A stretch of 64,000 bases of DNA from an uncultured archaeon (GTDB lineage Archaea > Aenigmatarchaeota > Aenigmatarchaeia > CG10238-14 > SCSR01). Position numbers and translations under genes: made by a program. The DNA lies in NCBI GenBank assembly GCA_964475145.1, contig CAYYVK010000001.1:6328-70327 (forward strand), in the 5' to 3' direction. Shown piece by piece: positions 34,314 to 57,748 of this stretch (position 1 is the first letter of the stretch; each line of letters begins with the position of its first letter). The notes under the pieces were generated by a model. That model had not been told where the DNA came from. It was given only the letters and a program-made list of their open reading frames with translations, and searched no databases.

Positions 34314-34410
34314 GGGCGAGTAGCTTAGCCTGGTGGAGCACAAGTGCTTAATCGCCTTATAAGGCAGCTAAGCTAGCGAGGGGTCGAGGGTTCAAATCCC
34401 TCCTCGCCCA
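34314..34410 (+). tRNA. tRNA (97 nt) with one or more non-canonical insertions/introns; isotype unresolved
   Basis: Perfect acceptor GGGCGAG/CTCGCCC, T-arm GAGGG-TTCAAAT-CCCTC, D-arm GCTT-AGCCTGGTG-GAGC, discriminator A. Anticodon region holds perfect helix GCTTA/TAAGC enclosing 18 nt with nested hairpin GCCT-TATA-AGGC; about 23 nt exceed a 74-nt tRNA. Confidence 0.7.
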
Positions 34411-34442
34411 CTTTTATAGATATTTAAAAGGAATTTTATCTT

Positions 34443-42498: not shown

Positions 42499-42969
42499 AT
42501 GGGAAAAATAACATCTAAGGAAGAAGAGTACGATACAAGAAACGCAAGGAGAATAAAAGAGCTTCTCGATAAAAATGAAAGAGGTCTTACAATAGCAGAA
42601 ATAGCTAATCAGCTAAAGCTCAACAGACATACAGTAGCAAAGTTGTGTGAAAGGATGTTAATAGAAAAAAAGATCAATTATGACGAAAAAGGTCCTGCAA
42701 AAGTCTACTACTCTGTTGGTCCAAGCAGGTTTGTTGGTAGAATAGACTTAAGCCCTACCGAGAAATTGTGGATAGATGTTTTCAAACATCCTAAATATAG
42801 CGGGGAGGAAGAGTTTGTAAGAATAAACCAAACTAAACATGATAACTTAATTAGATCGAGTAGCAAGTTTAAGTCTGTTGGAGCTATAGCAATTAAAAAG
42901 AGTCAACTAATAAACTTTATAAGAATTCTAAGGGATGTCGCAAGAAAGGAGTTTGGCTTGAACGTCTAG
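42499..42969 (+). CDS. winged-helix transcriptional regulator
   Basis: LTIAEIANQLKLNRHTVAKLCERMLIEKKI HTH. Confidence 0.45.
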   Translation: MGKITSKEEEYDTRNARRIKELLDKNERGLTIAEIANQLKLNRHTVAKLCERMLIEKKINYDEKGPAKVYYSVGPSRFVGRIDLSPTEKLWIDVFKHPKYSGEEEFVRINQTKHDNLIRSSSKFKSVGAIAIKKSQLINFIRILRDVARKEFGLNV

Positions 42970-43433: not shown

Positions 43434-44540
43434 ATGTTCAGTCTTTTGAAAGAAAAATTTAAGAAAATGATAAAATCCTTTTCTGAAAAAGTTGAGGAAA
43501 AAGGAAAGAGTGTGGAAGAATTAAGAAAAGAAATTGAAAAGTTATCCAAAGAAGAAACTGAAAAAGCAATAGAAAAAATTAAGTTGAAGGTTGAAGAACT
43601 ACCAGAAGTTAAAAAGGAAATTGAAGAAGAACTTAAAAAAGTAAAACCAAAAGAAAAAAAAGGCTTATTCAAAAAAATTGCCGAGAAGATAACAAAAAAA
43701 ATTTCTGAAAAAACTTTATCAGAAGAAGATGTAGAGCCTATACTTAACGAGCTTGGTAAAGATCTTATAGAAGCTGATGTCGCCTATAGTGTTGTAGAAA
43801 AGATGAAAAACGATTTGAAAAAAAGTCTAGTCGGAAAGGAAATAAAAAGAGGGAAAGAGAAAGAAGCTATAACGCTTGCTTTAAAAGAGAGCATTTTAAA
43901 AATACTAGAAGTTCCTAGCTTTAGCTTAACAGAAAAATTGAAAAATAAAAAACCTGTTTTAATTCTCTTCTTAGGTTTTAACGGTAGTGGTAAGACGACA
44001 AGTCTTGCTAAAGTTGCAAAGTGGCTAATAGACAAAGGCTATTCTTGTGTTTTTGCTGCTGCAGATACTTTTAGAGCTGGTTCAGAGGAACAGTTAGAAG
44101 AGCATGCAAAGAAAATATGTGCAAGAGTCATAAAGCATAAGTACGGTGCAGATCCTGCTGCTGTGATATTTGATGCTGTAAGACATGCGGAAGCGAATGG
44201 TATAGATTTTGTTTTAGCGGATACAGCAGGAAGAAGCCATACAAACGAAAACTTGATGAATGAAATGGAAAAGATAATTCGAGTAAATAAACCAGACGTA
44301 AAAGTGCTAGTGATAGACAGTCTCACAGGAAACGATGCAGTTCTACAAGCAAAGTTTTTTGGGAAGCTTGGAATAGATGCTCTTATCTTCACGAAAGTAG
44401 ACGTGAATGAAAAAGGAGGGGCAATACTTTCTGTTGTTGATGAACTAAAAAAACCTATTTTGTTCCTTTGTAATGGACAAGACTATTCAAACTTAGAAGA
44501 ATTTTCTCCTCAAAAGTTCGTCGAGAACCTTCTTAGTTAA
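43434..44540 (+). CDS. ftsY: signal recognition particle receptor FtsY
   Basis: KE-rich N-domain; NG domain GFNGSGKTTSLAKVAKWL, DTAGR, TKVD motifs. Confidence 0.85.
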   Translation: MFSLLKEKFKKMIKSFSEKVEEKGKSVEELRKEIEKLSKEETEKAIEKIKLKVEELPEVKKEIEEELKKVKPKEKKGLFKKIAEKITKKISEKTLSEEDVEPILNELGKDLIEADVAYSVVEKMKNDLKKSLVGKEIKRGKEKEAITLALKESILKILEVPSFSLTEKLKNKKPVLILFLGFNGSGKTTSLAKVAKWLIDKGYSCVFAAADTFRAGSEEQLEEHAKKICARVIKHKYGADPAAVIFDAVRHAEANGIDFVLADTAGRSHTNENLMNEMEKIIRVNKPDVKVLVIDSLTGNDAVLQAKFFGKLGIDALIFTKVDVNEKGGAILSVVDELKKPILFLCNGQDYSNLEEFSPQKFVENLLS

Positions 44541-44693
44541 TTCACCACTCTTAGTGGTAGAAAAATTCTCCTACGCTACTGAAAGTAGTTAGGCATCTAT
44601 ATCCGACTCCCTTTTCCAACTATTTCTCATGAGAGCTTTTAAAAAACAAGCTCATGAACTTTTCGAAAGTTTTAGTTACTTTGAGGTGTTAAG

Positions 44694-45026
44694 ATGGAAA
44701 GGTACAAATCAGAACATAGAAAACAGAACAGGATTGTAAAGTTCATAAAAGAATACAACGGATTAGTTCCTGTGTTAGGTGGGCTAATAGTTAGTGGAGC
44801 AGCTGGAATAATTGCTTTTGCTGTAGGTAGCGCACAAAGTGCTAGCGATTCCTTCCGATACTTAACGCAAACAGGAGACTTTCTTGGCGCAATAGGGATG
44901 CTTTATGCAAGAGGTAGTGAGCTTGCTGGTAAGTATGCCTTAGCTGGCTATGTCGGTGGCCAATTTGTCACTTATAAACTTAAGAAAAGTGTTTCAAACT
45001 TTTTTGCTGGAATACTGGGGAGGTGA
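44694..45026 (+). CDS. hypothetical small membrane protein (2 TM)
   Basis: 110 aa; Gly/Ala-rich helices. Confidence 0.3.
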   Translation: MERYKSEHRKQNRIVKFIKEYNGLVPVLGGLIVSGAAGIIAFAVGSAQSASDSFRYLTQTGDFLGAIGMLYARGSELAGKYALAGYVGGQFVTYKLKKSVSNFFAGILGR

Positions 45027-45029
45027 AAA

Positions 45030-45320
45030 ATGTCTGAAATAGTCCAACTGTTAGAGAAGTATAAACTTCCACTAGCATTTGGAAGTGGTGTTGCTGCAAC
45101 ACTTTTAGTTCAATACGTTCTTGTGCCAAGAGTTCAGAAATGGAAAGAAGATCTTGCAGAAAAAATTGCAGAGAAACAGGCTAAATACCTAAAAAGTTGT
45201 ACCTCGCAGAATTGTGACGGAATAGTTTACCAAAGTGAATTGAAGAGGTTCGTCAAGGAAGTTGTTAAAGAGAGTTTAGCTGAACTACTGGAGAATTATA
45301 AGCAATCTTTGGAAAAATAG
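45030..45320 (+). CDS. hypothetical protein (1 TM)
   Basis: 96 aa. Confidence 0.3.
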   Translation: MSEIVQLLEKYKLPLAFGSGVAATLLVQYVLVPRVQKWKEDLAEKIAEKQAKYLKSCTSQNCDGIVYQSELKRFVKEVVKESLAELLENYKQSLEK

Positions 45321-45338
45321 AAAGTTGAGCGGGAAAAT

Positions 45339-45737
45339 ATGGAAGTAAAATATGAGAAAAGTTTACCGAATTTTTTAGAAACTCTTTCCTACTCTTTAAA
45401 GAATTTTGCTGAAATTCTAAAACACCAAGAAAAAATAGACATTAGAGAGGAATTGTTGAAAGTAGGTTTGTACTTGCTTTCAGAAGCTAGAAATAATGAG
45501 TTAAAAAATCTTATCTTAGATTTTTTCCCTAAACCTTATAGACCAGTAGCGGATGCAATAATAGAAAAGTATAAGAAAGAACCTTGGGACGTCACAGTAG
45601 ACTTTATTTCGAGTGTAATAAAAGAACTTGGAAGGGACAAGGAAAAAGGTGTGTACAGGTCTACAGAAGAAGTTGTAAAAAGTACTTTTAAGAAATTGGT
45701 TGTAAGTAGCTTAGTCAAAGAACTTTTTAGCGCTTAG
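45339..45737 (+). CDS. hypothetical helical protein
   Basis: 132 aa. Confidence 0.3.
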   Translation: MEVKYEKSLPNFLETLSYSLKNFAEILKHQEKIDIREELLKVGLYLLSEARNNELKNLILDFFPKPYRPVADAIIEKYKKEPWDVTVDFISSVIKELGRDKEKGVYRSTEEVVKSTFKKLVVSSLVKELFSA

Positions 45738-45749
45738 AGTGGCTAAAAA

Positions 45750-46088
45750 ATGGAGCTCGATAGACTTATTAAAACACTAGAAACTTATGATAAGGTATTT
45801 TCTTTTCATCATACAAAAGAAGCTAGCCTAGAATTAAGAAACAGTATCTTAAAAGACCCTGAACTAAGACCATATGATAAAATGCTCTTTACAAGTTATC
45901 TAGATCGACTAAGCCAAACAAAGAACGAACAAAATAATAGTTCATTCTGGAGTTATGCGCTTGTAGGCTTACTTGGTGTTGCAGGTGGTTTTTTGATCCG
46001 AGGTTTGCTCCAAGAATTTCTTGAAAATCTTGTAGAAGATGTGAATAAAAAAGTCCTCGAGAGGCTTGAGTATGAGAGAAAAAAGTAA
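45750..46088 (+). CDS. hypothetical protein with C-terminal TM helix
   Basis: 112 aa. Confidence 0.3.
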   Translation: MELDRLIKTLETYDKVFSFHHTKEASLELRNSILKDPELRPYDKMLFTSYLDRLSQTKNEQNNSSFWSYALVGLLGVAGGFLIRGLLQEFLENLVEDVNKKVLERLEYERKK

Positions 46089-46524
46089 AATTGGGTATGA
46101 GTTTGAAAAAATAGTAGCAAAACTTTTCGAGCTAAAGGGGTATGAAGTAGAAACAAATAAAATTCTGGTTGGCAAGAGTGGGGTTCAACACGAGATAGAC
46201 ATCTACGGCAAGTTAAAAGGAACTACCATGGCTGCTGAGTGCAAGTATAGAAGTATAGAAGAAAAGGTTGAGAAAAATGACATAGCTATATTTTTGATGA
46301 AGCTAGACGACTTAAACATCCAAGAAGCCTACATAATAACAAACTCCAAGTTTGATGAAAATGCAATCAGAATAGGAAATTATTATAACATCAAAATGAT
46401 AGACGGAGATTCTCTAAAAGAAGAGTTTAGAAAGTATGGAATTAGTTACACACTCGAACCCCTTCCAGATGGTCCACTTTTAAATATCGTTAAATCTTTT
46501 ATAAATCTCGCTAAACAAATTTAA
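46066..46524 (+). CDS. stand-alone Mrr-cat-type restriction-endonuclease-fold (PD-(D/E)xK) protein
   Basis: 152 aa; FELKGYEVE...GVQHEIDIYGK...AECKYRS matches D-x(n)-E-x-K core. Confidence 0.55.
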   Translation: MSMREKSKIGYEFEKIVAKLFELKGYEVETNKILVGKSGVQHEIDIYGKLKGTTMAAECKYRSIEEKVEKNDIAIFLMKLDDLNIQEAYIITNSKFDENAIRIGNYYNIKMIDGDSLKEEFRKYGISYTLEPLPDGPLLNIVKSFINLAKQI

Positions 46525-47437
46525 ACGTGCTTTTCCCTCTTTTAGGTTTCAGTTCTAGTATAAATTCTGACCTTACTGTTTCTAAGAATTCACGAAGCAT
46601 TTGCTCATTCTCTGCTGAGAGTGTGTCCCACTCCAGTAAACTCTCGTCTAATTTGGAGTACATTTTTTTACTTGCTTCTAACAATTTTCTTGGAGCCCCT
46701 CCTCTTTCCAAAAGTTTTGAAAGTTCTCTTAGATTTGATTTTATTTTTCTACACTGGGCTTTTTCTCCTATCAGCCTATATACAAGATTAACTACCTTTT
46801 CTACCTCCCTTACATCTAACGGTGGTCTATCAACAGCTAGATCTGCTAGAAGATAAACCTGATAGATGTTCTTCTCTGCTATCTTAATAAGCTTTTCAAA
46901 ACCTTCATCTAGAGAATTAAATTTGTTCGCCGCTCTTATTATTGCCTTATACACAAAATCCCTCTTTGGAAAATCTTCTGGAACAAGATTTGCAATCCTT
47001 TCTGCTATTCTAAACCCCTTTATCAGCTCGACGTTAGACTCGTCTGCAAGAATAGAAAAAAGCTCTCCCTCTACTTCTGCAAACTTATAGCCAACTTTCT
47101 CAAGACGTTTACCCACTTCTAGTTCTACCTTCTTACAAACTCCTGAAAAAAGTTTACTATCTCTCAGCCTAAACTCGTCACCAGTTTCTTGGTAAAAGTT
47201 TGCATAAGGTTGGAGAAAAGCCAGGATAGATGCAAGCTCCTCTGAGAAAAAATTTTTATTCAAGGCATTATAGTTTATGACAAACCTATAGTTCTTAAAA
47301 TCTGCAAATCCTCTTATGCTTTTGTCTTCAAAAAATCTGCCATCCTTATCTAACTCTAATTGAAAAGTGTTTGGAAAGCCAAAATAGTCTGTATAAAGCT
47401 TTACATCTTCTAATACTTTCTTTGCTTTCTCTTCCAT
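46511..47437 (-). CDS. hypothetical protein
   Basis: 308 aa; 4-nt spacing to upstream HAD-like gene. Confidence 0.35.
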   Translation of the reverse strand: MEEKAKKVLEDVKLYTDYFGFPNTFQLELDKDGRFFEDKSIRGFADFKNYRFVINYNALNKNFFSEELASILAFLQPYANFYQETGDEFRLRDSKLFSGVCKKVELEVGKRLEKVGYKFAEVEGELFSILADESNVELIKGFRIAERIANLVPEDFPKRDFVYKAIIRAANKFNSLDEGFEKLIKIAEKNIYQVYLLADLAVDRPPLDVREVEKVVNLVYRLIGEKAQCRKIKSNLRELSKLLERGGAPRKLLEASKKMYSKLDESLLEWDTLSAENEQMLREFLETVRSEFILELKPKRGKSTFKFV

Positions 47438-47440
47438 CTT

Positions 47441-48628
47441 TCACCTTTTAAAAATTTCTGCATACTTCCTAATCTTTTCTATATCCTCTTCGGTAAAATG
47501 CCATTCCGGAATTTTAGCTTCCATCTCATTACAAATATCGTCTATAAAACTTTTCTCACTTTCCTCTTTGCCGCTTTCAAACCTTTCTAGCATCTCCTGT
47601 AATCTTGAACCTAATTCAGAATTTCTAAACTTCAGATTTTTGTCGATAAACTTAGTATTTTGTACAAGTTTCTGAATTGCATTCTTCATTGTTTCTTTGT
47701 CTAAAGAGTCTAAAGTGCTTTTCAGCTTTTTCACCTCGTTGATACTTAAGCATAGATTATAGTAAGATGAAGGATCGAGAAAGAGAGTTGTTAATCTACC
47801 AACCAACCATGACTTTACAATGTTAGTTATTTTACTTAAGTCTTCCTTCAAAGAAGCATCACCAAAGTAGAGTATACTTGGATATTTTGGCAAATTGTAG
47901 GAAGTTTCTTTTTCATCTTTTCTTGGAATTCCAACATAAAGCCCTAAACCACCTCTTGCAAAAAGTGGCTCCTCAAGCCCTATTTCTTCTGTAGAGTCTA
48001 TGTCAGTAGAGTAGATGCATAAGTCTGAAGAGCACCCAAACATCTTTGAAATGTTTTGTGTAGCTTCTAGCTTATTGTAGCCCAGGTTGTGACGCATTCC
48101 CTTAAAGTATCCTTCCTCGTCCCATTCAAAAGTAGATCCAAAACAAAAAGTAGCTGGAAGAGAAAATTTTTCTGTTGCAAACTCTTGCACCAAATCTACA
48201 GGCTCACCTGAGTTTAGAGCTATGGTAAAACCAATCTCTGTTAACTCCTTTTTAGCTTGTAAAGCTCCTGGTGTTAGTTTTGCTTCTCTTACTGTCTTCT
48301 CTCTTGCTTCTACATAATCTTCCTTCTTCATCCTCGTCTCCCTCAACTCTTGATTTAAAAGCTCTTCCCATCCTTTGTTTTCATGCTCACAAACTAACTT
48401 CAAGAAGAGCTTTTTCAACAAATTAACTTTTTCTTTCACCCTTCTGTTTCTCATGTTCTCAAACAGCCTCTCGTACAAGTTCTCGGTAGTAAGTGTGTGG
48501 TCTATGTCGAAGATGAAAAGCAAACGTGGTATGTACTTGAAGTGTGCTCCAGAGAAATCGTACTTGTTTGCAATCTTTAGGTAGAGTGTACAAACTTCTT
48601 TTGTGTAATTATTTGTAAAGTTTTCCAT
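47441..48628 (-). CDS. HAD-like domain protein (motif I FIFDIDHTLT) with long C-terminal helical extension
   Basis: 395 aa; DxDxT motif, later YFGDAS. Confidence 0.4.
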   Translation of the reverse strand: MENFTNNYTKEVCTLYLKIANKYDFSGAHFKYIPRLLFIFDIDHTLTTENLYERLFENMRNRRVKEKVNLLKKLFLKLVCEHENKGWEELLNQELRETRMKKEDYVEAREKTVREAKLTPGALQAKKELTEIGFTIALNSGEPVDLVQEFATEKFSLPATFCFGSTFEWDEEGYFKGMRHNLGYNKLEATQNISKMFGCSSDLCIYSTDIDSTEEIGLEEPLFARGGLGLYVGIPRKDEKETSYNLPKYPSILYFGDASLKEDLSKITNIVKSWLVGRLTTLFLDPSSYYNLCLSINEVKKLKSTLDSLDKETMKNAIQKLVQNTKFIDKNLKFRNSELGSRLQEMLERFESGKEESEKSFIDDICNEMEAKIPEWHFTEEDIEKIRKYAEIFKR

Positions 48629-48892
48629 CAGTTAAATTTACTACCCCCAGTGGTAAAAATCTTATACTTTTAATTCACCACTCAATAGTAGCTATGAGAA
48701 AAATGAAAAATTCAGAAGATCTGGCAAAAGCGATCATTTCTGTTGCAAGAAAGTTCGTCTCAGAATTAAAGAGAATGTGTGAAAACCCTTCTTTAAAGGG
48801 AAATTTACTGAAAGAAAGGCTTAGAAGGAAGTTGAAAGAGTTTGAATCTATCCTAGACTTCTTAGAATTTACTCGGAAATTGACTCGAAAGT

Positions 48893-49681
48893 CTAGGAAA
48901 ACTTAAAATCTTCTAGCTTCACTTCCTTTGCACTTTTCCAAATGCTTTTCATATAGCTATCAAAAACTTTTACTAAAGCTGGGTCTGTAGAGTAGAGTGA
49001 AGTAAACGGGAACTTTTCTTGTCTTGTTGGGTTATGGTCTAATCTTATTAGCACTTCTTTACCGTCTGCGACCATAATCCTTGGATGCACATTAGTAACG
49101 AAAATTCTTATTTGAACCTTATGAGAATAGTACCATTTTGCTTGATAGTAATTTTTCTCGTCTATGCCCTTCATGGCTATTATTCTTACAGTAGCTCCCC
49201 TTTTCACAGCATTCTTTACTGCCTCGCCTAGCTTTGGTGAGTAGGTAAAATCTCTACTTATCACATAAGCATACTTTTCTACTCTATCAAACATTTCGCA
49301 TACCCTATTTACAAATTCTTTTAAGCCTTTCCCTCTTGCTGTCCATAAACCCTCTATCACGTTTTGTCTAACAGGCTTTATCGATTGTAAAAGCTTGATC
49401 GATTCTTCCAACTCCTTTAGCTCACTTTTTCTTTCTTCCAAGAGGTTTGTCAATGCTACTTGTGGAGGGATCGCCCTGAACTCTTTTGGTCTACCTCCTA
49501 CAAACTCTACAAGTTGCTTGTTTGCAAGCTGCTCTAAAACTTCATAAACTTTTGACTGGGGTATTCCAGAATCCTTTCCTATTACACTAGCTTTTGCCGA
49601 GCCTAGGGAGAGAAGTGTTGAATAGGCAAGTGCCTCATATTCGCTCAAGCCAAACTTTTTGAGCAAATCTTTTGCTTCCAT
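48893..49681 (-). CDS. TrmB-family transcriptional regulator
   Basis: N-terminal wHTH GLSEYEALAYSTLLSLGSAKASVIGKDSGIPQSKVYEVLEQL; C-terminal effector domain. Confidence 0.7.
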   Translation of the reverse strand: MEAKDLLKKFGLSEYEALAYSTLLSLGSAKASVIGKDSGIPQSKVYEVLEQLANKQLVEFVGGRPKEFRAIPPQVALTNLLEERKSELKELEESIKLLQSIKPVRQNVIEGLWTARGKGLKEFVNRVCEMFDRVEKYAYVISRDFTYSPKLGEAVKNAVKRGATVRIIAMKGIDEKNYYQAKWYYSHKVQIRIFVTNVHPRIMVADGKEVLIRLDHNPTRQEKFPFTSLYSTDPALVKVFDSYMKSIWKSAKEVKLEDFKFS

Positions 49682-51858: not shown

Positions 51859-53400
51859 TCATCTTTCCAAAACAAACATCTTTTTTGTTATTGGTATTTC
51901 TCTTACTCGATGAATCAACATTTCCCTCTTTTCTCCAATGCCGATAGGAATTTCTTCTGCTAATAAGTTAGAAGCTCTTTCCAGCTTCCTCAGTTTTTCC
52001 GCATAGATTGTGAGAATTTTCTCTTCTTTCTTTACAGGATCTCCAAGTTTCTTGTGTAAAGTTACACCAGCTCCCTTATCTTTTGGTGCTCCTGCTGCTT
52101 TGGCAACCTCGGATATACCCCCATTATCGATCCACAACACTCTCCCATTTTTCTCTGACTTTATATCCAATTTATACGCACCTACCTCCACTTCCTCAGG
52201 ACTTATCTTTTTCCCTCCTTGGGCTTCCATTATTTCATAGAGTTTTTTCATGGCTTTACCAGAGTTTAATGCAGCTTTAGCTAGATTCTCGGAATTTCTT
52301 TTACCCACCATGCTCAGAAGTATTTGTGCTAAAGAGCATACCTTCTCTTCTAGATCGCTTACAATTCTTCTTCTTGAAATGACTTCTAAAGCCTCCCTTG
52401 CTTCAAGAGCAGGACCTATCGAATAGCCTACAGGCTGTTCCCCATAAGTAACAGCGCACTGAACTTTTATTCCAACCCTTTTCCCAAGCTCTATAAAATC
52501 TTTTGCTAACAAATCTGCATCTCCTATAGTCTTAATTTTTGCTCCTCTACCAGTAGGTATATCTATCACCAAATGTGTAGCTCCAACCGCTTTTTTCTTT
52601 GCCATTATAGATGGTAGAAGAAGAGGATCTATACCAAGAGGGTATTCTATCTGAATGAATATATCGTCTGCAGGGGCTAGCTGTAAAGTGCCTCCCCAAA
52701 CTATGCAACCGTTTGTTTTTTCTACCACTTTCTTCATTTCTTCAATGGTTAAGTTAACTGGCATCAAACATCCTGCTCTATCAGCTGTGCCTGCTGGTGA
52801 AGTAATTGCTCTAGAAGATGTCTTTGGTATTGTTAAGCCAAGACAAGCGATTATAGGAACGAGGAGTAGCGTAGTCTTATCTCCTGGCACACCACCTGCA
52901 GAATGTTTATCACAAATAATTTTCCTCTTCAGATTAAGCTTTTTTCCAGTCTCGACCATAGCAATAGATAAGCTTGTAGCCTCGTCTAAGTCTAGTCCAG
53001 TATTGTGAAGAGTGGTAACAAAAGCAGATATTTCTATATCGGTCAAGTTTCTTTCTACAATATCTTTAACAATTTGCTTTATTTCGTCATAGTTCAGTTT
53101 TCTTCCTTTTAGCTTGTTCCTGATGAAATGAAGAGATTGAGGGAATTTTGCAACTTCCACTTCTAACGTTTCTTCCCTTCTTAGCCCAAGGGCTGCTTTG
53201 ACTTCCTCGTACAAGCCTATCGTACCTTTTTCTACTATCTTTTCTGTCACGTTTACTATAGCAGTTACACAATTCTTTTTGTAACCAACCCTAACTCTGT
53301 CAAGACTATGTATACCTAAATCTCCTGCATCCTCCATGTTCAAAATTACTATCGGTTTACCACCCGACTCCAAGCCTAGGAACTTTGCCTTCAAGTTCAT
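51859..53400 (-). CDS. deoA: AMP phosphorylase (thymidine-phosphorylase family, archaeal DeoA-like)
   Basis: 513 aa; N-terminal ~90-aa extension plus glycosyl-transferase family-3 core (SAGGVPGDKTTL; TGRGAKIKT). Confidence 0.8.
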   Translation of the reverse strand: MNLKAKFLGLESGGKPIVILNMEDAGDLGIHSLDRVRVGYKKNCVTAIVNVTEKIVEKGTIGLYEEVKAALGLRREETLEVEVAKFPQSLHFIRNKLKGRKLNYDEIKQIVKDIVERNLTDIEISAFVTTLHNTGLDLDEATSLSIAMVETGKKLNLKRKIICDKHSAGGVPGDKTTLLLVPIIACLGLTIPKTSSRAITSPAGTADRAGCLMPVNLTIEEMKKVVEKTNGCIVWGGTLQLAPADDIFIQIEYPLGIDPLLLPSIMAKKKAVGATHLVIDIPTGRGAKIKTIGDADLLAKDFIELGKRVGIKVQCAVTYGEQPVGYSIGPALEAREALEVISRRRIVSDLEEKVCSLAQILLSMVGKRNSENLAKAALNSGKAMKKLYEIMEAQGGKKISPEEVEVGAYKLDIKSEKNGRVLWIDNGGISEVAKAAGAPKDKGAGVTLHKKLGDPVKKEEKILTIYAEKLRKLERASNLLAEEIPIGIGEKREMLIHRVREIPITKKMFVLER

Positions 53401-53774
53401 GCTACACTACACACTCCTTCTATACATTTGCATGACAAAGAAGGTTTTGGAGAAATTATCTGAGGGCAAATAACCTTAAATCCGCTACATGTAACGTTAC
53501 TCCTTTTGTTTATGCATTCCCAATTGGCTCCGGCTGTCTCTGGACAACAATTAGTGGAAAGCCATTCACAATCTGTATCAAAAGTGCATGAACGAATTAT
53601 CTCAGGTGTATGAACTGGTATTGTAGTTGATGGAGCTGTGGTCGTGGTTGTTGTCCCTATAGTTATTTGTGTGACGCATAAATTTTTCTGGACAGATTTT
53701 AGAAAGATCCAGAAGCCGATCAACATAGTTAAAATGGTGAAAAGGATATAAGGAGTACACCTTCTTACCTTCAT
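53397..53774 (-). CDS. small secreted/anchored Cys-rich protein with poly-Thr linker
   Basis: 125 aa; N-terminal TM/signal, TTTTTTAPSTT linker, 11 Cys in final 60 aa; 4-nt overlap with deoA start. Confidence 0.4.
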   Translation of the reverse strand: MKVRRCTPYILFTILTMLIGFWIFLKSVQKNLCVTQITIGTTTTTTAPSTTIPVHTPEIIRSCTFDTDCEWLSTNCCPETAGANWECINKRSNVTCSGFKVICPQIISPKPSLSCKCIEGVCSVA

Positions 53775-53849
53775 AAGTTAAATTTTGTTATCTGAAAATA
53801 AATGCTTAGGAAGACATTTTCTTGAGTGCCAGCCTCAAAAGATTAGAAG

Positions 53850-55091
53850 TTATCTGGAAGAAACAAAACCAAACTTGTTTAATGCTAGCTTGAGTTCTTT
53901 ATGTGTCTTGGAATACTCTTGTAGCGAGATTCCTTCTAATGCAGCATCCAATGCTTGCCTCATTGCGATAGCACCTATTCTTGTTTGAAGAGAGTGTATT
54001 CCACCGCCAGCTTGAACAATGAAATCGTTACCAAATACTTTTATCAATTGAGGTATATGGCCAGGATGCAACCCTCCAGAAGCAACAGGCATAACAGGCT
54101 TAAACTTCCATAGCCCTTCTTTTAACGCTTTACAATTTTCTAAAACTTCTTCCTTCTTCTCAAACATTTTCCCTACTCCTGTGCCTACGTGCAACTGATC
54201 TACACCAACAATTCTCGCAAGCTTTGCAATAACTTTCATGGATATACCATGCTTAGAATTTCTTGTTAGAGCTGCATGCCCTGCCCTATGTGCATGAATA
54301 ACAAGGTTAAAGTCTTGATTCCTTAAAGTCTGCAACGCAGACCAACCTATAGTAATTATGTCAACCATTATATACTCGTTCCCAACGTTCTCCACAGCCT
54401 TGGCACGTTTTAGCATTTCTTGCGTTTCTGCAGTAACGTTTATCATGTATGCTTTCTTCTCACCAGTTTCTTTTTCAGCCTTTTCTTTTGCTTTAAATGT
54501 TTTCTCTAACCTCTTCTCGAACTTATTGAAGTTTTGGCTGCTTAAGTTTTCATCATCTTTTACTATATCAATACCATTAACCCAAGCTTCGTAAGCAACT
54601 TTTACATGTTCTTCTGTTCTTAATCCAATCTTAGGTTTTATTATTGTCCCCAGCAAAGGTCTATTTGTCCTAAAAATTTTCCTTATCCCTTTTATTCCAT
54701 ACTTCGGACCTTTGAAGCTTTTCAGAAGCTTCTCTGGAATTGTTAAATCGACGAGCCTTAAACTTTTTATCTCTTTCATGCCAAAGATGTTTCCTGCCAC
54801 GCTAGAGAGGATCTGAGGAATATTTCCAGGTTCAAAAAGCTCAACAGGATAAGCAACGTTTATTCTTTTTCCCTCAATCTTAAAAACTTTTGCTGCAAGT
54901 TTTCTAACATACTTTTTCTCAGTTTTCACTTCTGTCCACGTTCCAGTCGAGCTCTCTGCAGCAATTGCACCAGCTGCTCTTTCTATACTTGAATTCCCTG
55001 CAGGCTCTAAAACGAATTCACATACCAAATCGTCCTTGCCTGGCTTGTAACCAAGGTCTACATAGTCTTCGTATCGCACACCATCACCCAA
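53850..55091 (-). CDS. rbcL: ribulose-1,5-bisphosphate carboxylase, form III
   Basis: 413 aa; GTIIKPKIGL, KDDENLSSQ, AGGGIHS-type motifs; clustered with AMPpase and R15P isomerase. Confidence 0.9.
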   Translation of the reverse strand: MGDGVRYEDYVDLGYKPGKDDLVCEFVLEPAGNSSIERAAGAIAAESSTGTWTEVKTEKKYVRKLAAKVFKIEGKRINVAYPVELFEPGNIPQILSSVAGNIFGMKEIKSLRLVDLTIPEKLLKSFKGPKYGIKGIRKIFRTNRPLLGTIIKPKIGLRTEEHVKVAYEAWVNGIDIVKDDENLSSQNFNKFEKRLEKTFKAKEKAEKETGEKKAYMINVTAETQEMLKRAKAVENVGNEYIMVDIITIGWSALQTLRNQDFNLVIHAHRAGHAALTRNSKHGISMKVIAKLARIVGVDQLHVGTGVGKMFEKKEEVLENCKALKEGLWKFKPVMPVASGGLHPGHIPQLIKVFGNDFIVQAGGGIHSLQTRIGAIAMRQALDAALEGISLQEYSKTHKELKLALNKFGFVSSR

Positions 55092-55923
55092 ACCTTTTCA
55101 TAAATTCTTTTGGCGTGAAAATTCCTTTTTCATTCACCAAGTAAGAAACAAGGTCAAACTCTACCAGATCAAAAGCCGGATTTCTCACTTTAATCTTTTT
55201 AGTGTTGATTTTAGAAAAAATTTCAGCATAAATTTCTTCTGCTGGCCTTTCTTCTATCACAAGCTTTTTCCTCTTATCTATCTTTAGAGTATTGCCAACA
55301 ACGATAAATGGTTTTTTCTCTCTTGCAGCTGCTAGCGCAAGGTTTTTTGTACCTATCTTGTTCACTACACCCTTAGGCTCAACAACTCTTATAGCATCTG
55401 TTCCAACTACTACACAATCTACATCTTTCATAAAATAGCTAACAGAATTGTCTGTAATGAGTGTGACAGGTATTCCAATCTTAGAAAGCTCTTTAGCAGT
55501 TTTCACCCCTTGCTCAAGAGGTTCTGTTATCGTAGCAAAAACACGGAATTTTTTCCCTTTTTTCCAGGCATTCTTTAAAACAGATAAAGCTTCACCAGAA
55601 TGACAGTGAGTCATTATTGTATGTCCATTACCAATAAGCTTACTTCCAATCCTTGCAACCCTTTTGGTAGAAGTTTCTAGTCTTTTGATGAGATAGTCTA
55701 TCGTTTTGACACTCTTTTTCTTTTTCAAAATCTCTAAGCAATTGTGTAAAACTACTGCAGTTGGTCTTGCACGCTCAAGTATCATTGCTGCAACCTCAAA
55801 CTTTAAACCAAATCCATACTTCTTACAGAACTTCCTCAAGAATTTTAACGAATACAAAGCAATCTCTTTAGCACCTTGAACTTTCATGCTCTGTATGCTT
55901 TCAGCAACTCTGGAAACATCCAT
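55084..55923 (-). CDS. ribose-1,5-bisphosphate isomerase (eIF-2B alpha/beta/delta-like family)
   Basis: 279 aa; GTDAIRVVEPKGVVNKIGT and CHSG motifs; 8-nt overlap with rbcL. Confidence 0.8.
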   Translation of the reverse strand: MDVSRVAESIQSMKVQGAKEIALYSLKFLRKFCKKYGFGLKFEVAAMILERARPTAVVLHNCLEILKKKKSVKTIDYLIKRLETSTKRVARIGSKLIGNGHTIMTHCHSGEALSVLKNAWKKGKKFRVFATITEPLEQGVKTAKELSKIGIPVTLITDNSVSYFMKDVDCVVVGTDAIRVVEPKGVVNKIGTKNLALAAAREKKPFIVVGNTLKIDKRKKLVIEERPAEEIYAEIFSKINTKKIKVRNPAFDLVEFDLVSYLVNEKGIFTPKEFMKRFG

Positions 55924-55955: not shown

Positions 55956-56627
55956 ATGAAAAGTTCAGAGGAAGAGAGAAAAAGGTTGGTAGAAACTCTA
56001 GAGAAAAGGGGGTATATTCGCAGCAAAGAGGTTAAGGAAGCAATGCTGAAAGTCAAAAGAGAGGACTTTGTTCCAGAAGAATATAAAAAAGATGCTTATC
56101 TAGATACACCACTTCCAATCCCAGGTAATGTAACTATATCTGCACCCCATAGCTAAGGGGAAATGCATGCAATCTCCCTAGAAGCTCTGCAGCTTAAACC
56201 TAGAGAAAAGTTTTTGGAAGTTGGCGCTGGCTCAGGAATAATGCTTGCTTATGCTTACGAAATAATTAGAAGCAAGGAGAAAGTTTTTGGGATAGAGATT
56301 GTTCCAGAAGCTTACAAGTTTGGAAAAGAAAATTTGGAAAAAGCAGGATATGGCAACAAAGTTAAGCTTGTTCTTGGAGATGGTTCTTTAGGATTGCCCA
56401 ACTATGCCCCATTCGATAAGGTCTTAATAAGTGCTGCATGCCCAGATATACCCAAACCGTTAAAGGAGCAGACTAAAGTTGGAGGGAGAATAGTCGCAGT
56501 TATTGGTTTACCACATGGGGATCAACACCTTGTTTTAGTTGAAAAAACAAAAGGTGGAAAATTTTTAAGAAAAAAACTTTTACCTGTAGTTTTTGTTCCG
56601 CTAGTTGGAGAGTACGGATGGAAATAA
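55956..56627 (+). pseudogene. pcm: protein-L-isoaspartate O-methyltransferase (pcm) interrupted by in-frame TAA; either pseudogene or split gene (66-aa N-fragment 55956..56156 and 154-aa C-fragment 56163..56627 with its own AAGGGG RBS)
   Basis: ...TISAPHS*GEMHAISLEALQL versus canonical contiguous TISxPHM; downstream SAM motif LEVGAGSGIMLAYAY. Confidence 0.6.
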
Positions 56628-57646: not shown

Positions 57647-57748
57647 TGGGGTCGACGGGATTCGAACCCGCACACCGAGGTTTCCTCATCAAATCAGAGC
57701 TCCATTCAGCTGGAGCCTCGTGTCACTACCAGGTTAGACGACGACCCC
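57647..57748 (-). tRNA. tRNA-Trp (CCA) with 28-nt intron at canonical 37/38 position
   Basis: GGGGTCG-TC-GTCT-AACCTGGTAG-TGAC-A-CGAGG-CTCCAG[CTGAATGGAGCTCTGATTTGATGAGGAA]A-CCTCG-GTGT-GCGGG-TTCGAAT-CCCGT-CGACCCC-A; intron UGGAG pairs with anticodon loop. Confidence 0.8.

Follow-up and report, generated by a model that had tools for sequence, protein, structure and literature searches.

Directly downstream of ftsY (43434-44540) in the analysed window, a 64-kb stretch of archaeal DNA, a tightly packed plus-strand run of small ORFs converges with two longer minus-strand ORFs, beyond which lies a gene for a TrmB-family regulator. The initial annotation had described a cluster of seven ORFs here, with a 395-aa HAD-like and a 308-aa protein encoded convergently with the small ORFs, and the ORF listing of the window confirms all seven with respect to coordinates, order and convergent layout, as Pfam confirms the TrmB gene. 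On the plus strand, gaps of 3, 18 and 12 bp are followed by a 17-bp overlap, and the last gene of this operon, coding for a nuclease, overlaps the convergent 308-aa gene by 14 bp. As dN/dS values of the locus ORFs against the closest relative range from 0.11 to 0.18 (prefoldin 0.17, FtsY 0.05), all are genuine genes under purifying selection. The G+C content is uniform across the window.

The five-gene operon starts with A110 (110 aa, 44694-45026, +), a small, predicted glycine-zipper-like membrane protein with one strong hydrophobic segment (residues 22-48), the gene of which is preceded at a distance of 5 nt by the Shine-Dalgarno-like sequence GAGGTG. With 90-95% identity, A110 (dN/dS 0.12) is the most conserved module member among close relatives; in distant archaeal lineages, the loci of which carry L numbers here, orthologues were identified by tblastn in L024 and L025 (33-38% identity) and by profile in L022 and L027. 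B96 (96 aa, 45030-45320, +; dN/dS 0.17) consists of an N-terminal glycine-rich hydrophobic segment and a coiled-coil tail, with orthologues in L024, L022 and L027 found by tblastn or profile. C132 (132 aa, 45339-45737, +; dN/dS 0.14) is a soluble helical protein with the motif P-W-D-x-x-V-D ... K-E-x-G-K-D ... G-x-Y-R/K-x-T and without a match in Pfam or the PDB; present in seven out of seven distant loci, it belongs to the universal core of the module. D112 (112 aa, 45750-46088, +; dN/dS 0.18) begins with a soluble part, continues with a glycine-rich hydrophobic stretch (residues 65-88) and ends in a charged helix; orthologues are found in L024 and L025, and proteins of D112-like architecture occupy the equivalent position in L021, L022, L027 and L028. 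The operon thus encodes three glycine-rich small proteins predicted to be membrane or membrane-associated, one soluble helical protein and an Mrr-type nuclease. Within the window, 19-residue Kyte-Doolittle maxima of 2.19 (A110), 1.66 (B96) and 1.81 (D112) agree with the earlier assignment of transmembrane helices to three small ORFs, but A110 is the only small protein with a strong hydrophobic segment, and the glycine-rich segments are much weaker in distant orthologues, as noted for B96 and D112.

The last operon gene (46066/46072-46524, +) overlaps the D112 stop codon and encodes a protein of 152 aa from a TTG or of 150 aa from an ATG start, the latter being chosen in public gene calls. The claim that it is an Mrr-type PD-(D/E)xK nuclease is borne out, as it matches Pfam Mrr_cat (PF04471) with an E value of 4.6e-12 and 46.5 bits (gathering score 21), carries the motif HEIDIY...AECKYR and retains E12, D43, E56 and K58 invariantly in 11 orthologues down to 33% identity. 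By sequence, the 150-aa protein is confirmed as a bona fide stand-alone nuclease of this type with its predicted catalytic residues intact. The best solved relative of the family profile is AF1548 of Archaeoglobus fulgidus (PDB 1y88, 8e-13), with which the E...D...ExK catalytic set is shared. In contrast to its Mrr_cat relatives, though, the module nuclease is a stand-alone domain of 146-173 aa with a short conserved C-terminal tail (approximately 30 aa), possesses neither the Mrr_N winged-helix domain nor the ATP-cone or AF1548 C-terminal domain of the next relatives, and is always located at the end of the small-protein operon. With 14 matches among 5.8 billion clusters, the subfamily is very small. 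In one of eight lineages the nuclease is fused to a CDC48-like AAA ATPase, where the catalytic residues are equally kept. No signal peptide was found in the nuclease, and any substrate must therefore be intracellular or imported.

On the opposite strand, G395 (395 aa, 47441-48628, -) resembles HAD-IB phosphatases, with an inserted cap and, at the C-terminus, a helical domain of around 125 aa. The HAD assignment, previously based on the DIDHTLT stretch, holds, as the protein scores 34.3 bits against Pfam HAD PF12710 (gathering score 27), its DIDHT represents HAD motif I, and across 11 orthologues all four motifs (I-IV) are conserved, with D41, D43 and D209 invariant, the S/T-G at 132-133 kept and K186 nearly invariant. 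G395 is accordingly a confirmed, if sequence-predicted, HAD phosphatase with all four motifs intact. Its best PDB sequence matches are phosphoserine-phosphatase-like (3kd3, 6e-6; 1l7o/1f5s, 3e-4) and, as in phosphoserine phosphatase, approximately 90 residues are inserted between motifs I and II. In HAD enzymes, a C1 cap goes with small-molecule substrates. While the four catalytic motifs and the cap-sized insert recall HAD subfamily IB, G395 scores below every NCBIfam subfamily cut-off and differs by its N-terminal extension, its C-terminal helical domain and the zincin-like protein that always follows it directly, with reading frames that usually overlap or abut.

In the window this partner is F308 (308 aa, 46511-47437, -), the start of which is separated from the G395 stop codon by a 3-nt gap (47438-47440). 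Its N-terminal half, followed by helical bundles, models as a zincin-like fold, although Foldseek matches of F308 to zincin structures were not significant, and the protein belongs to a small family of its own. Unlike the zincin metallopeptidases (M1, M30, DUF885, M48/IrrE/SprT-like), the F308 family shows neither HExxH nor conserved histidines or other conserved metal ligands, and the model probably describes a non-catalytic or differently catalytic zincin derivative. Distant homologues (22-30% identical) are present in seven further lineages of archaea. With the exception of the G395 HAD domain, the partners matched no named family, be it in Pfam, NCBIfam, PADLOC, PHROGs or PDB sequences, in line with the earlier failure to recognise any.

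Two further genes belong to the unit. H70 (70 aa, 48694-48906, +), overlooked in the initial annotation, is a conserved basic helical protein encoded between the HAD and the TrmB gene; it is annotated as a gene in public assemblies, has 54-89% identity in relatives (dN/dS 0.11) and weakly resembles the B96 tail, as the B96 profile detects H70, possibly caused by coiled-coil bias. The TrmB-family regulator (262 aa, TrmBL2 size; 48893-49681, -; Pfam TrmB 5.4e-23) aligns over its full length with TrmBL2 (5box, residues 7-253 of 263), and TrmB (3qph) is a further match. The original grouping of the genes stands, but has to be extended by these two, and the seven ORFs, the 70-aa ORF and the TrmB gene constitute one conserved, probably co-regulated and previously undescribed module.

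The genes of this module have stayed linked in no fewer than eight lineages of archaea with small genomes (DPANN-type, Aenigmatarchaeota-like). Among close relatives, the block occupies an identical place between housekeeping genes, from ftsY to TrmB/Alba, in approximately eight contigs, but as gene order is shared over all 20 kb of the region within the genus to which the window belongs, synteny at that level proves nothing. In the closest reference genome found (L006, FtsY 56% identical), an SRP54-like gene is located in the module position, where the contig ends. Homologues of F308 were, however, placed on contigs from seven further lineages, with orthology confirmed by tblastn and iterated profiles, and each of these distant loci (those examined being only the ones that carry the 308-aa family) with enough flank contains a TrmB, a HAD-like and an Mrr_cat gene, the 308-aa homologue and four to six small ORFs coding for glycine-rich or coiled-coil proteins; the L023 sequence ends before the nuclease position. 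In L021, L022/L023, L025, L027 and L028 the TrmB gene immediately precedes the HAD gene, and in L026 it is nearby; by tblastn its product is, at 51-63% identity, the best-conserved member of the module. The window shares its convergent layout with L024 and L025, whereas all module genes lie on one strand in L021, L022, L027 and L028 and are reordered in L026, and as gene order and strand vary, the linkage has survived rearrangement. Conservation of context, proposed earlier as a check, is thus found both as synteny among relatives and as recurrence of the gene set in distant lineages. Assembly chimeras of one organism as the origin of the distant loci are excluded by protein identities of 20-45%. 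The contigs of these genomes suggest sizes of around 0.75-0.8 Mb. In six of the distant loci a SAM methyltransferase gene adjoins the module; next to the module, L021, L022 and L028 carry unknown genes specific to their lineage.

The TrmB protein is likely the regulator of the module. Palindrome 1, CACCACTCTTAGTGGTA (YACYAC-N5-GTRGTR; 44543-44559), a candidate TrmB-type operator, starts 3 nt past the ftsY stop codon, with the first small ORF following approximately 135 nt further downstream, and is conserved in six relatives with substitutions that preserve the palindrome. At a distance of 33 bp, palindrome 2, CTACTGAAAGTAG (44576-44588), contains TACT-N3-AGTA, a core kept in seven of seven relatives with variable flanking bases in L003/L018. 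Palindrome 3, TACTACCCCCAGTGGTA (48639-48655), another candidate operator, is located in the 65 bp that separate the divergently oriented G395 gene and 70-aa ORF, and is also conserved in relatives; as no gene ends there, a role as terminator is ruled out. Palindromes 1 and 3 are the two matches to the pattern in the 64 kb, against 0.02 expected for a pattern chosen post hoc. The seven distant loci, which were not part of the data defining the pattern, contain nine strict palindromes against 0.017 expected, a number reached by none of 300 shuffles; one of them lies within the methyltransferase gene of L021 and one between unrelated genes of L026, while all others fall into intergenic regions of the module. 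The palindrome 1 element precedes the first small ORF in six of the seven (L021, L022, L024, L026, L027 and L028; in L022 and L027 ahead of an intervening short ORF), a tandem pair 31 bp apart recurs in L021 (5700, 5731) and L028 (11147, 11178), and equivalents of palindrome 3 are found at divergent methyltransferase/TrmB or methyltransferase/A promoters in L021, L022, L024, L025, L027 and L028. Looser copies occur in L022, L024, L025 and L027. The palindromes are conserved between lineages with proteins only 20-45% identical, and it is the half-site sequence itself, beyond mere complementarity, that is retained, giving a TGM-like consensus TTACYAC-N5-GTRGTAA at module promoters of the window and the distant loci.

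As the palindrome marks promoters in both the window and the distant loci, the predicted sites argue for the module probably being a TrmB-type regulon. The regulator is of TrmBL2 length and keeps the recognition-helix tyrosine, and the palindromes, at or next to TATA-like elements, resemble two published sites, TATCAC-N5-GTGATA of TrmBL1/Tgr and TACT-N3-AGTA of TrmB (PMC4158304). On the other hand, the half-site is TACYAC and not TATCAC, and in contrast to the Thermococcales regulons the predicted targets are not sugar-metabolism genes. For TrmBL2 itself, a role as chromatin protein that shows little sequence specificity has been described (PMC4158304).

With respect to function, the initial annotation had suggested a defence, abortive-infection or toxin module, which the syntenic core-genome position and the lack of mobile-element or defence neighbours do not support. 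Were it a novel system for defence or abortive infection in archaea, infection would be sensed by the small membrane proteins together with the zincin-like and HAD proteins, the nuclease as effector would cut invading or host DNA, and TrmB would keep the system repressed. Mrr-type nucleases are common defence effectors, and this one is co-operonic with small hydrophobic proteins, fused to an AAA ATPase in one lineage and, in PADLOC, hits CARF-PD-(D/E)xK models as well as the Mrr domain of ZorD (1e-6); the adjoining methyltransferase and the lineage-specific neighbours would also fit. The PADLOC search, proposed earlier, however, yielded a match at the domain level only, with no partner among 5027 models. 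While Zorya likewise joins membrane components to an Mrr-type nuclease domain, C-terminal in ZorD, the module is without ZorA/ZorB (MotAB-like), the helicase and other Zorya genes and resides in the core genome, and HAD, zincin-like or TrmB partners are not known from Zorya. The methyltransferase is of the generic Methyltransf_11/UbiE type, not of a DNA methylase family, and is absent from the 64-kb window, where no DNA methyltransferase family was found near the block either. No integrase, transposase or known defence gene occurs in the eight contexts examined, and no module relatives were found on the viral contigs searched. Module divergence is similar to that of housekeeping genes, and a gene set fixed in every distant lineage examined and maintained in apparently strongly reduced genomes is more in keeping with a core function than with a defence island of patchy occurrence. 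A defence role is considered rather unlikely.

Very improbable is a toxin-antitoxin or programmed-death module, with the nuclease or the holin-like glycine-zipper protein as a toxin restrained by a small partner; the genes overlap tightly, but the similarities of A110 to Phage_holin_3_3 (E 0.015) and of the C132 family to the anti-restriction protein 3wx4 (E 0.06) are both below significance, 8-10 genes with two enzymes and a dedicated regulator far exceed any toxin-antitoxin pair, and vertical inheritance, housekeeping-like purifying selection and the lack of a mobile-element context in the loci point elsewhere. A quality-control machine for membrane proteins or complexes, with a PD-(D/E)xK domain that is not primarily a nuclease, and in which the zincin-like protein and, in one lineage, the CDC48-like unfoldase would be reminiscent of FtsH-type AAA-plus-zincin proteases acting on membrane proteins, is improbable, as the 308-aa family lacks HExxH or other conserved metal ligands and the AAA domain is present in one of eight lineages, which suggests that most have no protease or unfoldase partner; the strict conservation of the catalytic residues, AAA fusion included, argues for real nuclease chemistry. 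That the genes form no functional unit, being unrelated lineage-specific neighbours through the shared gene order of close relatives, agrees with the 20-kb synteny within the genus, but is hardly credible given that the set recurs in seven distant lineages, where flanks, order and strand differ, and that a shared palindrome is found at module promoters.

With moderate confidence, we favour a conserved, co-regulated module with a vertically inherited core function over a mobile defence or toxin island. The best guess is a membrane-associated nucleic-acid-processing complex, in which TrmB would bind the palindromes and switch both transcription units together, and the small proteins may provide a membrane-associated scaffold by which the nuclease, fused in one lineage to a CDC48-like unfoldase, is held and restrained. 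Tentatively, the most likely specific role of such a complex is controlled nucleic-acid breakdown at the membrane for salvage, whereby the nuclease would yield oligo- or mononucleotides, the capped HAD enzyme would remove phosphate from small phosphorylated products, and these could feed nucleotide and ribose salvage in scavenging-dependent organisms. The salvage neighbours, which are few, vary between loci and carry no palindrome in the window or the distant loci, provide weak hints: genes for AMP phosphorylase, ribose-1,5-bisphosphate isomerase and RuBisCO lie 3-7 kb away in the window, a nucleoside hydrolase gene 1.5 kb from the module in L028 and a NUDIX gene nearby in L026. An equally weak hint is the phosphoserine-phosphatase-like insert of G395.

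The block situated behind ftsY in this A+T-rich archaeal DNA (~36% G+C) is established as a module of nine or so genes with a dedicated TrmB-family gene, an operator-like element and a syntenic position in the core genome. The ftsY gene (43434-44540, plus strand), preceded by a prefoldin gene, is followed on the same strand by five packed ORFs, namely A110 (44694-45026), B96 (45030-45320), C132 (45339-45737), D112 (45750-46088) and, as the last, the Mrr_cat nuclease gene with a product of 150 or 152 aa (46072 or 46066 to 46524). Convergent with the nuclease gene, and overlapping it by 14 bp, is the gene for F308, a 308-aa protein with a putative zincin-like N-terminal half (46511-47437, minus strand), next to the gene for G395, a 395-aa HAD protein (47441-48628, minus strand). 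The initial annotation had listed these seven ORFs as a cluster and all seven are present, but the list lacked the conserved H70 (48694-48906, plus strand), a 70-aa basic helical ORF between the G395 and TrmB genes, the latter of which (48893-49681) lies beyond H70 and overlaps it by 14 bp at the 3' ends.

Exact copies of the module proteins occur on several metagenome contigs, and about eight related contigs possess an arrangement identical to the window, with the syntenic order winged-helix gene, prefoldin, ftsY, the seven ORFs, H70, TrmB, Alba, AMP phosphorylase and RuBisCO, at an identity of 80-95% for FtsY and 71-87% for the nuclease. When compared with the closest relative, all ORFs of the block, H70 among them, have dN/dS values of 0.11-0.18, with prefoldin (0.17) and FtsY (0.05) as comparison genes; the value for H70 (0.11) indicates purifying selection. 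The block ORFs are real genes situated in the core genome. FtsY-anchored scans of reference genomes recovered distant relatives only, enough for an approximate taxonomic placement, and no intermediate ones; the closest genome found by the alignment-based FtsY scan, a Candidatus Aenigmatarchaeota MAG with 56% FtsY identity, carries the winged-helix gene, prefoldin and ftsY, with an SRP54-like gene next after ftsY and then the contig end. The winged-helix-like 156-aa protein encoded upstream of prefoldin (42499-42969, plus strand) is unusually conserved, being 96% identical to its counterpart in the closest relative and 70% identical in the same MAG, and matches no Pfam family above threshold.

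As synteny within the genus is uninformative with respect to function, distant relatives were sought. Word-indexed homologue searches with the nuclease and F308 found almost nothing outside the same genus, and an exhaustive profile search for the F308 family among 1.84 billion proteins found 27 representatives, of 230-380 aa except for one weak 618-aa match. Contigs were obtained for seven of the 27, and among those with enough flank, to which the gene-set count is limited, every distant locus carries a TrmB gene (273-296 aa), a HAD-like gene (411-509 aa) directly followed by the F308 homologue, often with overlapping reading frames, and a run of four to six small ORFs that ends in a Mrr_cat gene of 146-173 aa. 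In a tblastn comparison against the window, all seven window proteins have matches of 26-44% identity in L024, in unchanged order, and TrmB shows 51-63% identity in the other distant loci; iterated profiles detect the C132 family in 7/7 loci, which confirms the distant genes as orthologues of the module genes. The TrmB gene adjoins the module in seven of eight lineages; in the eighth, L024, the contig ends ~180 nt upstream of its HAD gene. L024 and L025 share the convergent layout of the window; L021, L022/L023, L027 and L028 have all genes on a single strand, and L026 has a changed gene order. Persistence of the linkage through such rearrangements, with protein identities of 20-45%, strongly supports a functional unit with TrmB as a member. 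Two of the contigs, 757 and 783 kb in length with archaeal ribosomal and LSM genes alongside, suggest that the hosts of the module are small-genome archaea.

Adjoining the module in six distant loci is a well conserved class I SAM methyltransferase gene of the Methyltransf_11/25/UbiE type (218-246 aa; L021:1547-2215, L022:4403-5083, L024:4497-5153, L025:4882-5538, L027:6802-7542 and L028:6840-7535, with the truncated L014:849-1238 as a further locus), with an N6_N4_Mtase match (4.7e-4) below threshold. Wherever the intergenic region is readable (L014 is truncated), methyltransferase and module share a palindrome-bearing divergent promoter; within the 64-kb window no related methyltransferase is encoded. 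A few kb downstream of the module, three distant lineages possess a pair of genes of unknown nature (~590-680 aa and ~200-230 aa; L021:9570-12138, L026:12557-14921, L028:18084-20826) with 36-52% identity between loci, which is absent from the window. Many otherwise unrelated neighbour genes in L021, L022, L027 and L028 (e.g. L022:14020-14529 and L028:14636-15061) are headed by the N-terminal signature M-x(0-6)-Y-x-P-x-K/R and a charged stretch, as in MPQPYKPAKDREKE and MKYTPNKKKDE. Such genes number four in L021, eight in L022 and six to seven in L028, with none in the window, L024 and L025, and the signature may act as a signal for sorting or processing that is specific to these lineages.

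Reading of the intergenic regions uncovered palindromes at either edge of the block, conserved in related contigs. The first, CACCACTCTTAGTGGTA (44543-44559), is located 3 nt past the ftsY stop codon; the second (44576-44588), 33 bp further on, contains TACT-N3-AGTA; and the third, TACTACCCCCAGTGGTA (48639-48655), resides in the 65-bp divergent region between the G395 and H70 genes. YACYAC-N5-GTRGTR occurs in the 64-kb window at the first and third palindromes only, with 0.02 occurrences expected in this post hoc statistic. In the form TTACYAC-N5-GTRGTAA, the element is present at promoters of the module both in the window and in seven distant loci. These loci provide an independent test, in which the strict pattern has nine matches versus 0.017 expected, a number reached in none of 300 shuffles. 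All but two of these matches fall within intergenic regions of the module; of the two, one lies within the methyltransferase gene of L021 and the other in an unrelated intergenic region of L026. The sites are found in the methyltransferase/TrmB divergent promoter and upstream of the first small ORF, where L021 and L028 possess tandem palindromes 31 bp apart, as the window likewise has a pair; looser copies occur at equivalent places in L022, L024, L025 and L027. The control region 44541-44693 can be aligned by eye at the DNA level with L021:5697-5932, L028:11030-11285 and L026:2408-2636, in the order two palindromes, TATA-like ATCTATAT or CGATATTA and Shine-Dalgarno-like GGTG, and the first small ORF possibly has a conserved leader upstream.

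A role of the palindromes as terminators or RNA hairpins was rejected on two grounds, as they are also present in divergent promoters where no gene ends and as the half-site sequence TTACYAC itself, beyond complementarity, is conserved across lineages; both observations favour a protein-binding operator. Known sites of the TrmB family are the TGM TATCAC-N5-GTGATA for TrmBL1/Tgr and TACT-N3-AGTA for TrmB (PMC4158304), and the module palindromes resemble both. The module TrmB, with a PF01978 score of 81 bits, aligns over its full length with TrmBL2 with the recognition-helix tyrosine kept in the sequence. It presumably binds the palindromes as candidate operators, and the predicted pairing of TrmB with its operator is a variant of a regulatory type already known. 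The 9-mer TTCACCACT, present at both borders, was considered as an attachment-site repeat and rejected, as it belongs to the operator palindromes. With this 9-mer explained, G+C flat across the module region, no integrase and no flanking tRNA, a recent insertion or mobile element was equally rejected.

With respect to the enzymes, the initial annotation had proposed an Mrr-type nuclease fold and a HAD-like protein, and both assignments are borne out. The 150-aa protein matches Mrr_cat (PF04471) with 46.5 bits (gathering score 21, E 4.6e-12) over profile positions 6-113 of 115, and 11 orthologues with 33-87% identity show no variation at E12, D43, E56 and K58. Pfam detects no second domain, the 150 aa comprising the catalytic domain and a 30-aa tail, whereas the full-length Mrr type IV restriction enzyme combines the catalytic domain with an Mrr_N winged-helix domain that the module nuclease lacks. 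Among solved structures, the uncharacterised AF1548 (1y88; 8e-13) is the best match, and the subfamily, with 14 matches in 5.8 billion clusters, is as narrow as the F308 family, its next relatives having ATP-cone domains. Included in the orthologues is the protein of L026, the most distant module, in which Mrr_cat, still with its catalytic residues, forms a fusion with a single CDC48/VAT-like AAA domain (L026:4496-6076, plus strand; 8e-88 to PDB 5g4g); to our knowledge, an architecture of nuclease domain plus unfoldase has not been described.

G395 matches HAD PF12710 with 34.3 bits (threshold 27) and possesses HAD motifs I-IV, with D41, D43 and D209 invariant, K186 nearly invariant and S/T-G kept at positions 132-133 in 11 orthologues. 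The protein resembles HAD subfamily IB and SerB, its best PDB sequence matches being phosphoserine-phosphatase-like proteins, but scores below every curated HAD-IB NCBIfam cut-off (TIGR01490 31.3 versus 98.3, TIGR01488 25.3 versus 45, serB 20 versus 144) and thus stands outside every curated subfamily. As in phosphoserine phosphatase, an insert of ~90 residues separates motifs I and II, and an additional C-terminal helical domain is present; such C1 caps in HAD enzymes accompany small-molecule substrates. Nuclease and G395 are predicted to be catalytically intact enzymes, and their domains are new, divergent members of known superfamilies.

For F308, an AlphaFold model with a 28-sequence alignment reached a pLDDT of 91.8 (an earlier model with six sequences and a pLDDT of 61.8 was discarded), and Foldseek against PDB and BFVD returned nothing at E<=1e-3; neither an HExxH motif nor a conserved histidine is present across the 28 family members. 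The F308 and C132 families have no significant PDB or Pfam profile match, a C132-family hit to an anti-restriction protein (0.06) being noise-level. Glycine-rich hydrophobic segments are found in A110, B96 and D112, strong in A110 only. B96 and D112 have similar charged helices at their ends, and the B96 profile weakly detects H70, which is weakly similar to the B96 tail. Apart from HAD and TrmB, the partners of the nuclease have no meaningful match in Pfam, NCBIfam, PADLOC or PHROGs, in agreement with the earlier impression that none belongs to a named family. Judged by these comparisons, the module as a whole matches no known system and six of its members are without a library family; in the literature, no described DPANN cluster or module of this composition was found.

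We infer, with a moderate preference, that the conserved module is under the control of TrmB, encodes a membrane-associated assembly holding the nuclease and has a core cellular role. The leading specific role, tentative as it is, would be a regulated breakdown of nucleic acid that feeds nucleotide and ribose salvage. Weak hints towards this role come from four sides. At a distance of 3-7 kb from the module, the window encodes the archaeal AMP/nucleotide salvage pathway (51859-55923, minus strand), with AMP phosphorylase, form III RuBisCO and an isomerase-like protein of the IF-2B family for ribose-1,5-bisphosphate grouped together with a small unknown ORF; L028 has a nucleoside hydrolase gene adjacent to the module and L026 a NUDIX gene; and the HAD protein is capped. 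The initial annotation had proposed instead a defence or abortive-infection system, a rather unlikely reading that would nevertheless fit the combination of the nuclease and small membrane proteins, the neighbouring methyltransferase gene and the fusion with AAA. Speaking against it, defence models recover none of the partners: in PADLOC-DB 2.0, five of the six non-nuclease proteins are without any match and C132 has a sub-threshold AbiEii hit (E 0.0066, 14 bits), the nuclease alone finding domain-level matches (ZorD Mrr domain 1e-6, CARF-PD-(D/E)xK model 3e-4, PDC-S02 3e-3). In about eight related contigs the position is syntenic in the core genome, none of eight contexts is island-like or has mobile or defence neighbours, and the methyltransferase lies outside DNA-methylase families and is missing from the window, where no cognate DNA methyltransferase for a restriction-modification system is found next to the nuclease. 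Scans of viral contigs with A110, the nuclease and F308 found no relatives, and a metagenome scan with the A110 alignment recovered same-genus loci and otherwise only a spurious high-G+C match, L020, rejected after its ORFs were read.

A toxin-antitoxin function is less likely, as type II systems consist of two genes, a small toxin and its antitoxin, and are often mobile, whereas the module comprises eight to ten genes with two enzymes and a regulator in the conserved unit. A protein-quality-control machine and a neighbourhood of the genes by pure coincidence are likewise less likely. Returning to salvage, its most elaborate version, which we regard as improbable in full, would be a TrmB-switched, membrane-anchored machine specific to small-genome symbiotic archaea, in which a restrained nuclease and the capped HAD protein turn nucleic acid acquired from host or environment into salvageable nucleosides and phosphate. 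If so, the module would be part of the feeding apparatus of the symbionts and not an immune system, and salvage or uptake in general would bear on their nucleotide supply; a defence function would instead mean a new kind of system with unusual partners. Since the gene sets of small-genome (DPANN-type) archaea are very small, a block of nine or so genes that stays linked despite 20-45% protein identity is likely to be important to how these organisms live. Its six familyless proteins, the two enzymes with intact active sites and its own regulator with a recognisable operator offer a concrete entry into archaeal dark matter.

Elsewhere in the window, two tRNA genes (34314-34411, plus strand, and 57647-57748, minus strand) are with 97-102 nt longer than usual and probably contain introns; ARAGORN assigns no anticodon to the former. 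Matches to PCMT (protein-L-isoaspartate methyltransferase) are divided between two neighbouring gene calls, one of 154 aa (56163-56627) and one of 66 aa made in public assemblies (L001:2003-2674), and a split gene, a frameshift or a wrongly called start could account for this.
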